Under the pieces are notes generated by a model. It did no database searches. It was not told the origin of the DNA and was given only the letters and a program-made list of their open reading frames with translations. Position numbers and translations under genes: made by a program. A DNA stretch of 64,000 nt from Eledone cirrhosa (taxonomy: Eukaryota): assembly GCA_964016885.1 (NCBI GenBank), contig OZ024742.1, forward strand, positions 258,416,001 through 258,480,000, given 5' to 3'. The first letter of the stretch is position 1, and each line of letters starts with the position of its first letter. Shown here piece by piece: positions 5,512 through 64,000 of the stretch.

Positions 5512-7245
5512 TCATTTAGGTTTCTGGGTTCAGCACTATATAGAACAGGTTATTCCGTATAGTCAACATTTATGTAATATTAGAGAGAGCACTCGACGTA
5601 ATGAAGCTCACCCGTCTTTAAAATAACAGAACGCTGGACTGGTGTGATTCCTTAAAGGTTTATTATACTATGAACATTTCAATGACCGGGTTCACTATTA
5701 ATTCGGTGACATCATCAGGTTTTCAAAATTTAACAAAGGAATATAAAGGCAGAGAGACAAGAAGGCGTCAAACATTTAGCAGTTTCTAGTCCAGTCCTCC
5801 GCCTTCAAGTGAGGGCTACTAAGACTTCTTATGTCTTTCTGGTGAAGGGGCGTAAGCTTATAGTGCACTACTACCACCCCGTCATGGACAGAGGCTATCG
5901 GTGGGATCAGGGCTAGCGTTGGGATCAGGTTACATTAAAGTTGGTCAGAAAACCTAAAGAGTGCTAAGAAATATATTTTTTCAAAAAACATTTATCTTTA
6001 ACAAACCTGTACAGTATATTTTTCATTGTAGGGTCAGAAATTACGATTAACGATTAGAAATGCAAAATTTATGTTTAGAATTAAAAGATGCTATTTAAGA
6101 TGAGATTAGAAAAGTATGACTTAGGTTTCAATTTGGGAGATTTAGTTAAAGAATTTACAGATGGAGGCGTTTATGAAAAGGTTAAGTGTAATATTGATAG
6201 TCACGATAAAGCTTCAAGGCGGAATATAAAGTTAAGATTGAAATTAAAAAGTAAGATTAAGCCCATGTTTGGTGGTCAGTAACCAGCGACGTTGCGGCCT
6301 CCCAGCCCACCCGGGGCCCAATGGCGTGTCAACCGTTCCCAGTATTTTCTACCGAAGAAAGGGACATTTATTTTTCCGAGCCCTCCAGGATGTTAACTGA
6401 CTCAAGCGCCGGGGTGGCTAGCGGGAGGCCCGCCACTGTCGGCTGATCATCGTGTATACCAAACGATTATTAGTTATTCACACTGGTGGGGGATTTAGTT
6501 GAAGGGCTAGTAGAAGGAGGCATGATCAATTTTAAAGTTATGATTAAGCCTAGAATTTAAAAGTACTGTTTGGCGTTCAATAACCGGACGCACGGTAGAT
6601 TCCAAGCCCGCCCAGAGCTCAAGGGCGTAACAGCCGTTCCGAGTATTTTCGTTTACCGAAAGATGGGGAAATCTATTTCTCCAAGGACGCTAGGAAGGCT
6701 GATCGACTCCAGCGCCTGGCGTGCAATCGGGAAAGCCGCACATCCGTCGGATCATCGCGTGTACCAAACGATTATTAGTTATTCACACCCGTGATGTAAA
6801 GTTTAAAAGTGTCTAAATCCGATGAAATGGGTAAATAGAATATATTTAGTACCCAGTTAGCCAGGGTTACATGTAGTGTGATTCCTGAGTGGGTAGGGAG
6901 TGTGATTAAAGATAAACAGATATAAAGGTTACATAGAGTAATATTCTAGGGTCGTGTGCTAATTTTAGGTAACACATAAATATAATGCAGTCATACCCAG
7001 GGTGGTAATTGTGGGAGTTAAAATGGAAGTAAGTAAAGACATGTCGAAGAAATCAAAATACAGAAGAAATAAAATACAGTTCAAGGTGTAGCAAATAAAC
7101 AATAGATAACACGGTTGGAGGATACATGGTTATACATATAGATATAGAGAATGGAAGAGTTTGAGTAGCATCAGGTGATACTTAGTGTAGGTTGGAGTCT
7201 TAATTTTCAATGTGAATCTCTGCCTTTTCAGCCCCATGGATTGTA
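5512..7245 (-). mobile_element. Non-autonomous PLE-like element, copy 1 (decayed HHR near its 3' end; internal module duplicated)
   Basis: Colinear with 9860-11200 and flanked by (TA)n. The minus strand has CTGATGA...GAAcccggTC followed by AATAAA. Confidence 0.55.
5678..5724 (-). ncRNA. Degenerate PLE-type hammerhead ribozyme remnant
   Basis: CTGATGA tgtcac cgaattaata gtGAAcccggTC; the GAAA box is mutated and stem I is not paired. Confidence 0.4.
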
Positions 7246-7892
7246 TATATATATACATATATATATATATATATATATATAAAAAACTGATGTTGTCTGT
7301 GTGTCCTCATTTGTGCAGTCTATACAAGTACACATTTCTACTCCGATTAACTTGCATTTATATATTCCTTGCGGTCTAAAGATAGTAACTACAGCTTTTA
7401 TTTTTCAATTTTCTGTTGTTAAAGGGGTGTTATCAATCTCCGTCGAGCCCTTATAATATCTATCTGTATGTCTGACTGTCTGCATAACGACATACTGACG
7501 AACACGTCATCGATACACACACACATTCACACACACACACACACATGTATATATACATCTAAAGGGAGAAAGGGAGATGTAGAGAGGGTGAGTGAGATAC
7601 GCCGTAATACAGAGATATGTACAAGATATTCAGATAGAGAGAGAGAGAGAGATAATGGCGACGAACGCTGGTTCACACACACACACAAACATATATATAT
7701 ATATATATATATATAAAGACAGAGAGAGAGAGATCTGCGCGTTCTTTATTGTTCTCCATTCTGTAGAGGAAGAGAGAGAGAGAGAAGGGGTATGAGTGAG
7801 AGAGAGAGAGAGAGCGAGAGAAAGAGAGAGAGAGTATGAGAGAAAAGGGAGAGAGGGGTTCGAAAAGGAAGAAAGACCCCGTTAATGTTGGA

Positions 7893-9830
7893 AGAAGCGA
7901 TTCTTTGCTTAAAGTTTAATCCGTTCTTATAACAAATATACATATATACATACACGCATCCATAAACGTACATACACAAGCATACGCGAAAACACTCGCC
8001 ATGGGTATGCAAATACAAGCAAGTACACAAAAAAAACACGCACGCACATACAGAACCCATGCAACGCCTGTACCCGCACACATACGAACGTATACACCAA
8101 ATCTGTTATTTTAATAAATACTAGCAGAGGTACTCGGCGCTGGTCGGGTATTAAATAGGAGTTATGTATACCATTTATGTAAATACTTCTGTGCTGCTTC
8201 GAAAACTATATTTTTACAAAATCATCGGGTTTTTCCAAAAGGGGGTTCCTTCCCCCAGGGGTCCTCTACTCAATATAGGCCAATTATGAGGGTTCACATT
8301 CATCTGTAGAACAAACGTAGCCCATGTGTCAAGTTTTGCGAAAATCGGTTGCGAACTCCAGAAGTTATGACGTTTTGTTGCATTGCACTGCTTCCAAGAA
8401 AGCGGTTAAAGTGGGTTATCTGCAGGGAGGCCCTATAATCAATATATGGAAAAATGAAAGTGTCCATGACCATCCGGAGTACATAAGTAACCTATGTCTT
8501 AAGTTTGGTGAAAATGTTGTAGAAATGCATAAGGTTTACACACACACACACACACGCATTTGTGTGTGTGTTTGCGTGATTGTATGTATTTGTGTGTGCG
8601 TATGTATATGTGCGTGTATGTCAGCGCCGCATACATATGTACTGGCCTAAATCTTCACTATTTACTTTTACTATTTTAATAACCTCTGTCATTTTCGTTT
8701 ACAATTTTATTTACATCATTCTTAAACTCCGGGGCTGGAAATCATTCGGTTATTTTAAATAGAACATTAATCTAACGACTCCATTTATACCATAAACTTG
8801 GTCTTGTCTTTGCATGAAGTTGTTCTTCTTGTCCACATAACGACGTATTATCCTCGCTTGTTTTCCGTTCAATTCCAGGGAACGTCTTCACGAACCAAAA
8901 TATCGTCTTCCTGTTTTCCTACGGTTGCAATGTTTCTCGAAATATTTATCTCTGCGTTCACAGATTGAATTTTTTTAGTTTCAGAAGACCCCGTTGATGT
9001 TGAAAGCAGCGATTCTTTGCTTAAACATTAATCTGTTCTTATAACAAATATATATATATATATACAAATACACGCACGTACACAAAAAAAAACCCTGCAC
9101 GCACATACATATATATATATAGGTATGTGCGTGCGGGTAGTTTTTTTTTGTGTACGTGCGTGTATTTTTATACCTATGGCGAGTGTTTTCGCGTATGCTT
9201 GTGTATGTAGGTATATGGATGCGTGTATGTATTTATTTAATTTTAATTACCTCTGTATTTTATTTACTTTATTCTTAACTCTGAAGCCGAGAATCATTCG
9301 GTTTCCTAGTTAGAATTTTAGTCTACGACTTCAGTTATACCATTTACGTGGTTTTGTCTTTGCGAGCAATTGTTCACCCCGCTCCACATATGACATATTA
9401 TCTTCGTTTTTCCGTTCATTGCTAGAGAACATCTCTATGAACCACCTAATAGAATATTAGTCTACGACTTCTTTTATACCATAAACGTGGTTTTGTCTTT
9501 GCGTGTAATTGTTTTTCACTGCTCCAAATAATGAAGTATTATATTCGTTTTTTCCCGTTCTTTGCCAGGAAACGTTTCCAGGAACCAAAGTATCGTCTTA
9601 CTGTCTTCCTCCGGTTGCAACGTTTTTTGAAATATTCACTTCTGCGTTCACAGATTGGCTTTGTTAGTTTCAGAAGATCCGGTTAAGGGTGAAAGCAGCG
9701 ATTCTTTGCTTAAATTTTAATCTGTTATTTTAATTAATATTTGCTCTACGGTTCTTATATATTTGATATATATTTATCCTTATTGAGCCCTCTTTGGATT
9801 ATAGTCTTCAAATTTATTATTATTACTATA
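7893..9830. repeat. Locally duplicated and inverted dispersed repeat family (units near 7893-8050, 8720-9110, 9123-9232 inverted, 9240-9830)
   Basis: Recurring blocks gaaagcagcgattctttgcttaaa and tagtctacgact...tataccat...gtggttttgtctttgc. Another copy lies at 57515-57700. Confidence 0.8.
8119..8545 (+). mobile_element. Helentron/HINE-like non-autonomous Helitron relic
   Basis: Begins tactagcagaggtactcggcgctggtcggg and contains aagttttgcgaaaatcgg and aagtttggtgaaaat motifs. It ends in (CA)n, as is typical of HINE/DINE-like elements. Confidence 0.5.
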
Positions 9831-9859
9831 TATATATATTATTGAATAAAATGACAGGA

Positions 9860-62582: not shown

Positions 62583-62642
62583 TTTCATTTAACAGTGGTT
62601 TCTTGAAAGCAACCAAAATTGATTTCATTCATCAGAATGAAA
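62583..62642 (-). ncRNA. Hammerhead ribozyme, left-arm copy (stem III mutated)
   Basis: tttcatt CTGATGA atgaaatcaattttggttgctttcaa GAAA ccactgt TA aatgaaa. Confidence 0.65.
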
Positions 62643-63794
62643 AAATCCTGGTCTCTTTATTGACAGTAGATTTGAAAAACAAAAATATAACAGATATGAA
62701 AGTGAGGCTGGAGGAAAAAAAAAGGGGGGGGGGAGGCGGGGAATAATAATAAATAAAAATATATAACAACACACACGTATACACACACACGCACATACGC
62801 ACACACGCACACACGCTCACATATACACACATATATACATATATATATACATATATACAGGCATATATACACATATATATACACAGACACATATACACAC
62901 ACATACACATATATATATATATATATCCATACATAAACACACCAACACACACACGCACACATATATATATATATAAATATATATATACATATACATATTT
63001 ATATACATATTTATATACATATACATATTTATACACATACACATACATACATACATACATACATACATACACACACACATACATACACACATATATAGAC
63101 ACATGCATACGTACTCACATATAAAAGGATACATATGCACACACCTTTTTTTTATTATTGTTATTTTTATTTTAAATTTTGCCGTCTTGTATCGCTGTCA
63201 ACTTTATAATATATTTTATTTTTTTATTTTTTATTTTCTTAATCCTTATTTTTTATTTGCTTATTTGTATGTGACGGCCTACTATGATTATTTATTCTTA
63301 TTTGTGTGTGTGCATATGTATCCTTCTATATGTGAGTACGTATTCATGTGTGTATATATGTGTGTATGTATATATGTGTGTATGTATTTATGTATGTGTA
63401 TATGTATATACATGTATTTATATATATATGTATATGTATATAAATATGTATGTGTGTGCACGTATATATATATATATATATATATGTGTGTATATATATA
63501 TATATATCTATATTTATATGTATATATATATATATGTGCGTGTTGGTGTTTTTACGTATGTGTGTGTGTATGTGTGTGTATATGTGTCTCTGTGTATATA
63601 TAGGTGTATATATGCGTGTATATATGTATATATGTGTGTATATGTGAGTGTGTGTGCGTGTGTGCGCGTGTTCGTGTGTGTTATATATTCTTATTTATTA
63701 TTATCCCCCCCCCCCTTTTTTTCCTCCAGCCTCACTTTCATATCTGTTATATTTTTGTTTTTCAAATCCACTGTCAATAAAGAGACCAGGATGT

Positions 63795-63854
63795 TTTCAT
63801 TCTGATGAATGAAAGCAATTTTCGTTGCTTTTTAGAAACCACTGGTAAATGAAA
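63795..63854 (+). ncRNA. Type I hammerhead ribozyme
   Basis: tttcatt CTGATGA atgaaagcaa ttttcg ttgcttttta GAA ACCAcTGGT A aatgaaa: 7-bp stem I and GUA site. Confidence 0.85.
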
Positions 63855-64000
63855 TAATTATCTTATGTTGTTTATTACATAACTAATAAGTTCTGTAACT
63901 TACATAGAGCACTCTTTTTTCCTGGACCTTTCCGACGGAATTACTTCACATATATATATATATACATATATATATATGTAGTGACATACATTTCGCGGGC

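Follow-up and report, generated by a model that had tools for sequence, protein, structure and literature searches.

The Hydra clade of C-terminal endonuclease-positive (EN+) Penelope-like elements (PLEs) is described as inserting into (TA)n and carrying canonical hammerhead ribozymes, with an octopus member, Hydra-1_Obim, among those listed (Craig et al. 2021, PMC8557442). Truncated PLE hammerheads in opposite-strand pairs, and a U3-A8 variant of the core, were already described in 2014 (Cervera & de la Pena 2014, PMC4209133), and retrozymes were reported to be non-autonomous PLE derivatives in 2020 (Cervera & de la Pena 2020, PMC7229834) and in 2026 (Li, Clavereau & Pollet 2026, bioRxiv 2026.07.22.740005). 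The protein of an anole Poseidon element, PAc, cuts and extends both strands, uses two internal starts, is predicted to be a dimer and does not need ribozyme activity to insert (Frangieh et al. 2024, PMC11167929). The origin of PLE tails and inverted ends has been open since PLEs were first described. Here we consider a 64-kb stretch of the 3.0-Gb genome of Eledone cirrhosa (assembly GCA_964016885.1, contig OZ024742.1, positions 258,416,001 to 258,480,000; hereafter the window), which holds eight families of hammerhead-bearing elements, A to H (Table 1); numbers prefixed with L denote loci taken from the same genome.

We think it likely that these copies represent the 3' ends of no fewer than seven families of the Hydra clade, together with derivatives lacking an open reading frame (ORF), inserted in (TA)n, and that each lopsided fold-back forms when two enzyme subunits begin reverse transcription on one uncut RNA, at two positions marked by hairpins, with each nicked DNA strand priming one of the starts.

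Parent elements of the ribozyme families

Judging from what lies upstream of their copies, families A to F and H are very probably the 3' ends of Hydra-clade PLEs inserted in (TA)n. Upstream walks elsewhere in the genome led, in each of these seven families, to a reverse transcriptase (RT)/GIY-YIG ORF in sense orientation that is common to independent loci. In family A a 695-aa open frame lies between two pseudo-long terminal repeats (pLTRs; L365), in E the order pLTR-tail-ATG-ORF is seen in L262 and that of ORF-untranslated region (UTR)-pLTR in L261, and in C the ORF was found upstream in 8/25 loci, as well as in L268 and L274. Parents were also found for B (L142-L144), F (L266, L267 and L270), H (L360-L362) and D (L153 and L155, with the nuclease half of the ORF only). 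Partial tandems of the pLTR, running from ribozyme through tail and leader to ATG, were seen for A, C, E, F and an H relative and for neither B nor D; inverted pLTR copies are present in all families.

Our assignment to the Hydra clade follows from the motifs of the parent ORFs. The RW motif reads RWR, RWC or RWE in A, C, E, F and H and is unmatched in B; DKT replaces DKG in A, B, C, F and H and is unmatched in E; and for D this region is not covered or unmatched. A CxCx5C linker and a CxxC before the E occur in all seven ORF-bearing families, CxH after the N in six of them (D unmatched), and the parents have a single Cys inside GIY-YIG, with CCHH absent. Insertion in (TA)n with a hammerhead at the 3' end, as in the Hydra clade, holds for the families too. 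A search for protein homologues returned 34 matches, with no clade name among them. Poseidon, the label first considered, was dropped because the ORF motifs are those of Hydra. An earlier, sequence-only reading of the window had proposed a Neptune-type driver such as the broken element at its left edge. That element has a relative in L151. It and a relative just beyond the window do carry the Neptune linker and two internal Cys, but the Neptune signature (CX2-5CxxC linker, CCHH) was not found in the ORF parents, and no match was seen between A-H and the termini of either element; we have rejected Neptune as the driver, since A-H share no terminal sequence with Neptune-type elements. The Neptune-type termini (window 1200-1250; L159:8240-8320; L151:2800-2850) have a hammerhead-like motif of their own, TTGAnAA (U3-A8), with stem II deleted in the window copy.

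The ribozyme positions given by the sequence-only reading all held. A descriptor scan returned the complete type I folds of B, C and D, and a second, stricter one found matches in B, E and one F copy and an extra copy at 57977; canonical cores gave 3 matches in the window in this stricter scan versus none in any of 30 dinucleotide shuffles. Elsewhere in the genome, 60 evenly spaced stretches of 10 kb contained 57 descriptor matches, 32 of them from two tandem arrays, versus 0-4 per shuffle. The motifs have the type I core and three paired stems with compensatory changes; between B and its sister family, base pairs are exchanged in stems I and II. The core is canonical in the majority of spanning copies of B, C, D, E, G and H. 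Cores are non-canonical in A (21 CTGAGAA and 18 TTGAGAA among 43 spanning copies) and in F, where CCGAAGA prevails and accounts for the variants noted at 58476 and 59133. The presumed half-ribozymes at 12413 and 13349 are both 3' halves, the decayed one near 5700 was confirmed, and four of the supposedly complete folds stood, whereas the fifth, at 62584(-), has a stem III damaged with respect to the family pattern. No hammerhead family was found by Rfam in the window at E<=10, with only microsatellite-driven miRNA models among the top matches listed, and a tRNA scan of the window found none.

That all of these elements sit in (TA)n was nearly right: 12/12 matched A-H copy ends in the window abut (TA)4 (G falls below the identity filter), as do 48/60 in the 600 kb of evenly spaced stretches against a background of 6.6%, but C has no TA on its 5' side. 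An inverted partner accompanies 38/60 of the sampled ends. The description of most elements as fold-backs applies to five of the eight (A, B, E, F and H), C, D and G being without an inverted ribozyme arm. The inverted arm with a one-sided tail was correctly recognised; arms in the window stop 9-55 nt past the cut site and tails measure about 65-145 nt. It had also been claimed that the elements are non-coding, with no adjacent RT ORF, and the question had been raised whether any family links to a PLE ORF. In the window none of them has a PLE ORF next to it (E's neighbouring ORF belongs to an unrelated long interspersed nuclear element, LINE), but elsewhere seven of the eight families are termini of ORF-bearing elements, G alone being ORF-less, and "non-coding elements" holds only locally. 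The inferred PLE origin, TA targeting and truncation were borne out.

Two 3' ends and a bulged hairpin

Each family has two peaks of 3' ends, S1 at about +20 to +56 and S2 at +93 to +195 from the cut site, and it is because of these two fixed ends that the copies take the form of arm plus tail. In family A, contigs of public sequencing runs show both S1 and S2 as loose ends that abut TA. The ends combine by a simple rule: among 192 head-to-head pairs, 173 had both ends assignable, of which 166 were S1+S2, 3 S1+S1 and 4 S2+S2. Many loci had entered this set as best matches; in two unselected subsets S1+S2 made up 17/18 assignable pairs (of 20) and 17/17 (of 19).

A bulged hairpin, RCTC-[stem]-TH-GAGY (RCUC-stem-UH-GAGY in RNA), begins 4-10 nt 3' of S1 in 7/8 reference copies (5 nt in five) and is present in 247/333 tailed copies. 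The base pair is A-T in A, B, C, D and G and G-C in E, F and H, and the upper stems are paired yet unrelated in sequence. Tandem copies of families A, C, F and G, and of an H relative, have another such hairpin directly 3' of S2. Scanned over the 600-kb sample, the hairpin descriptor gave 75 matches, 51 with TA 25-120 nt downstream; six decoy descriptors gave 4-36 matches each, 0-4 of them near TA. Among six published Hydra consensi inspected by eye, the exact motif is seen in Hydra-2_Amil, Hydra-2_Ajap and Hydra-1_Ajap (two in tandem, in the leader), and those with the hairpin include coral and sea-cucumber elements. On balance we lean toward the view that Hydra-clade RNAs carry an undescribed cross-phylum cis-element, in which two bulged hairpins would each place an RT start ~5 nt upstream; such double priming, with either target strand serving as a primer, would then make the tail and the inverted pLTR and define a ribozyme-independent minimal unit for mobilisation in trans.

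Several points weigh against this view. The descriptor was derived post hoc from A-H. In family D only 8/18 copies fit it, the second hairpin of E is imperfect, and for B and D we saw no tandem copies. Minimum-energy folding returned the exact bulged hairpin in only 3/8 site-1 and 1/5 site-2 regions. Proximity to TA was also appreciable for a CA/TG-type decoy (21/40) and for a decoy that shares the basal stem (22/56). In eight of 9 further clusters unlike A-H, truncated copies do mostly stop 0-12 nt before the hairpin, but this test is blind to ends more than 12 nt upstream of it, and two of the clusters have many unclassed matches. Of the remaining consensi, Hydra-1_Crog has only a variant of the hairpin and Hydra-1_Amil a weak variant, and in Hydra-1_Obim, the octopus element, it is not evident by eye. 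In the study of the anole Poseidon protein, the start sites did not differ between strands (PMC11167929). Lastly, the clade call rests on motifs rather than on a tree, and a Pfam search with two of the Hydra ORFs gave no match.

The elements are new members of a known clade, with some non-autonomous derivatives, and it is the hairpin that is new. Neither the twin hairpin nor the S1+S2 rule was found in a full-text literature search, which left most subscription papers and the Repbase notes outside its reach, and the word "hairpin" has 0 occurrences in the main texts of PMC8557442, PMC11167929 and PMC3846280. More RCTC/THGAGY hairpins occur close to TA tracts in untraced repeat families of the window (9743-9788 and 11890-11919), and that of family J, which begins ~4 nt 3' of the end of the short arm, fits the pattern.

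A double-priming model and its alternatives

A plausible scenario is that a read-through transcript carries, in order, ribozyme, hairpin 1, tail, hairpin 2 and leader, and that the protein, probably as a dimer, binds the two hairpins while its nuclease nicks both strands within (TA)n. One cDNA would start ~5 nt 5' of hairpin 1 and the other ~5 nt 5' of hairpin 2; with starts fixed relative to the hairpins, tail length would equal hairpin spacing. Synthesis of both cDNAs would as a rule stop early on (within ribozyme stem II in family A), and the two would be joined head-to-head. Any RNA retaining both hairpins, such as G or the deleted A units described below, could be moved in trans. For the step in which the hairpins direct double priming, we put the chances only a little above even. 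The scenario accords with the findings on the anole Poseidon protein. Since the joint loops vary between copies, each fold-back appears to have been made anew. Some A joints (L026 and L043) contain long A/T runs or short filler foreign to the parent, which suggests untemplated or slipped addition during joining.

The same elements could also be explained by a single cDNA that starts at the tail end, folds back and is copied, with the nuclease then cutting the new DNA at S1 and the hairpin motif serving as a DNA recognition site. There is precedent for parts of this: PMC8557442 ascribes the tail to nuclease-mediated resolution, PMC3846280 interprets junction palindromes as self-priming, and the fly Penelope nuclease requires the tail as DNA (cited in PMC11167929). 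Moreover, the arms are equal in 82 of 127 short pairs. Of the rest, the S2 arm is the longer in 23; in the other 22, however, the window's B copy included, it is the S1 arm that extends further 5' than the tailed one, and this counts against a fold-back cDNA because the copy of a tailed cDNA could do so only by switching to RNA once more. There are also solo copies that terminate at S1 (D in the window). We regard this explanation as unlikely and favor two separately primed cDNAs.

The sequence-only reading had seen in the short fold-backs independent, non-autonomous retrozyme families that spread via self-cleaved circular RNAs. This has some appeal in that G is ORF-less and tandem, tandem arrays in which every unit has a ribozyme are seen in K (a family not in the earlier list) and in a 310-nt family, and the 196-nt fold-back of A has at least 40 near-identical dispersed copies. 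Yet seven of the eight families run into an ORF, which refutes it for A-F and H as a class, and the joint loops vary between copies; a fixed 196-nt master for A is ruled out by these variable joints together with the ORF-bearing parent. Further evidence comes from the truncation points. Taking all families together, only 7/662 5' ends lie no more than 1 nt from the cut site, and the absence of a pile-up there led us to reject self-cleaved templates; in family A, 164/286 lie 31-50 nt before it, within ribozyme stem II. Exact genome matches to A number 13,338 for a 30-mer of the 3' half versus 1,475 for a 25-mer of the 5' core. Because most copies of the commonest family are without the core and truncation does not pile up at the cut site, the ribozyme is likely unnecessary for insertion. 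Independent retrozymes are thus a very improbable source of the short fold-backs. Short inverted arms with TA flanks also look like miniature inverted-repeat transposable elements (MITEs), and one might suspect MITE-like DNA transposons or else assembly or recombination artefacts of TA tracts. Here the chances are slighter still: the arms are fragments of a retroelement 3' UTR cut short on the 5' side, the joints vary and only one side bears a tail, both ends recur in the contigs of public runs, and the ORF link refutes the idea.

"Retrozyme-like" does describe G, K and internal-deletion derivatives of A, and not A-F and H, which are tied to ORF-bearing elements; ORF-less tandem units with a type I hammerhead each were found only in G, K and the 310-nt family. 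The G unit is 2005 nt long, head-to-tail, with a longest frame of 110 aa. All 22 exact genome matches to its second hairpin continue into the ORF-less body (four of them over <750 nt), and no PLE ORF lies within 1.5 kb of any of them (0/22). Within family A, second hairpins were found at 146 loci; of 12 examined, 4 lead into a near-full ORF, 2 into a short ORF piece and 6 into none. At L397 (G000:C3:214146600-214148300) six tandem 273-274-nt units, internal-deletion derivatives of A, stand with TA on both sides, have kept both hairpins and lost the 5' ribozyme core, and share variants between alternate units. Retrozyme-like units can be seen here to arise from PLE ends. K (unit size 422 nt) forms an array at 420-426-nt spacing (L334:230-9900), and the 310-nt family has 12 identical units head-to-head with 5 inverted ones (L297:4000-9300), one type I hammerhead per unit; by their structure we take both to be ordinary non-LTR retrozymes (LTR, long terminal repeat). 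By eye, K is without the RCTC/THGAGY hairpin, and another PLE clade may mobilise it. The ribozyme of the 310-nt family has a stem II similar to that of B's sister family.

Other features of the window and comparison with known systems

Table 1. Positions of ribozyme-bearing and related elements in the window
Element	Position (strand)	Hammerhead	Hairpin motif	Arrangement
Family A	12337-12532 (+)	3' half alone, 12413-12439	12461-12484 (hairpin 1)	S1 arm 12337-12394 (-) head-to-head with tailed S2 arm 12397-12532 (+)
Family B	13504-13791 (+)	complete, 13732-13780 (+)	13548-13566 (tailed arm)	short tailed arm 13504-13620 (-); longer S1 arm 13620-13791 (+) with the hammerhead
Family C	47577-47835 (-)	complete, 47747-47806 (-)	47648-47688	tailed terminus without inverted ribozyme arm
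Family D	49668-50250 (-)	complete, 49732-49784 (-)		terminus truncated on its 5' side, with S1 as its end; flanked by TA on either side; not inverted
Family E	62581-63949 (+)	complete, 63796-63853 (+, tailed); damaged, 62584-62641 (-)		inverted pair; between the ribozymes, 3' UTR arms rich in simple repeats
Family F	58289-59223 (-)	58475-58521 (-, tailed); 59132-59178 (+, ending at S1)	58395-58428 (tailed copy)	inverted pair
Family G	5512-7243 (-)	decayed, 5665-5723		5'-truncated, non-autonomous copy of the ORF-less 2005-nt tandem unit
G-related copy	9838-11502 (-)			more diverged, 73-77% identity to the G unit
Family H	13275-13490 (+)	3' halves, 13325-13340 (-) and 13349-13364 (+)	13399-13420	short fold-back
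Family I	57971-58027 (+)	decayed		ends at S1, beside TA; parent untraced
Family J	54679-55340 (-)	decayed, 54904-54965	54730-54755	fold-back in TA; parent untraced
Family K	55498-55842 (-)	GAAA damaged		monomer; further piece at 5073-5355
Neptune-type PLE	1-968 (-)			broken; cysteine linker and two Cys within GIY-YIG

Like K, families I and J were absent from the earlier list. The G unit carries two diverged copies of a GC-richer module of ~220 nt (window 6267-6788 and 10432-10739); neither the unit nor its modules gave a significant Rfam match or a tRNA match. LINE sequences (EEP, RVT_1, zf-RVT) lie clustered on both strands at 17500-45000 and 59495-62628, large inverted pairs among them; we presume them to be Tx1-like, interleaved with RTE-like pieces. 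At 53257-54570, inverted arms of ~280 nt flank a 350-nt TA tract, with no hammerhead core found there.

A conserved RNA signal that keeps a constant spacing to either end would be a simple rule, which could be mutated directly in the existing in vitro format and would predict which non-coding RNAs these telomerase-related enzymes can mobilise. As for annotation, the thousands of short TA-flanked hairpins in this genome would be better entered as PLE termini than as MITEs or microRNA precursors.

The families described here agree with the Hydra clade of PMC8557442 in RW, DKT, the CxCx5C linker, the lack of CCHH, CxxC-E and N-CxH, as well as in the canonical hammerhead at the 3' end, the (TA)n targets, the tandem and inverted pLTRs and the one-sided tail. 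They differ in their very high copy number and many families, where that paper reports few outside cnidarians, in tail length (65-145 nt versus the 30-40 bp stated for PLEs) and in 3' UTRs of about 1-2 kb. With the minimal PLE hammerheads of PMC4209133 they share diverse type I motifs with palindromic stem III, mostly truncated elements, opposite-strand pairs 100-700 bp apart and the U3-A8 core variant. In contrast to that work, the families are here tied to their own ORFs and the pairs resolved into S1+S2 ends; in addition, a C3/A8 mismatch marks one amplified subfamily of A, and position 4 in F is mostly a C. Compared with the non-LTR retrozymes (PMC7229834; bioRxiv 2026.07.22.740005), K and the 310-nt family also consist of short ORF-less units in tandem, every unit with one type I hammerhead, and G is likewise ORF-less and tandem; at 2 kb, however, G exceeds the 51-972 bp range given for retrozymes (bioRxiv 2026.07.22.740005), and A-F and H are not tandem monomers. 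The anole element PAc (PMC11167929) offers a parallel in its two internal RT starts bounding the tail, in the cutting and extension of both strands, and in a ribozyme that is dispensable while RNA 3' of the starts is needed. It belongs to another clade, and its starts are described as lying in an AC-rich stem-loop.

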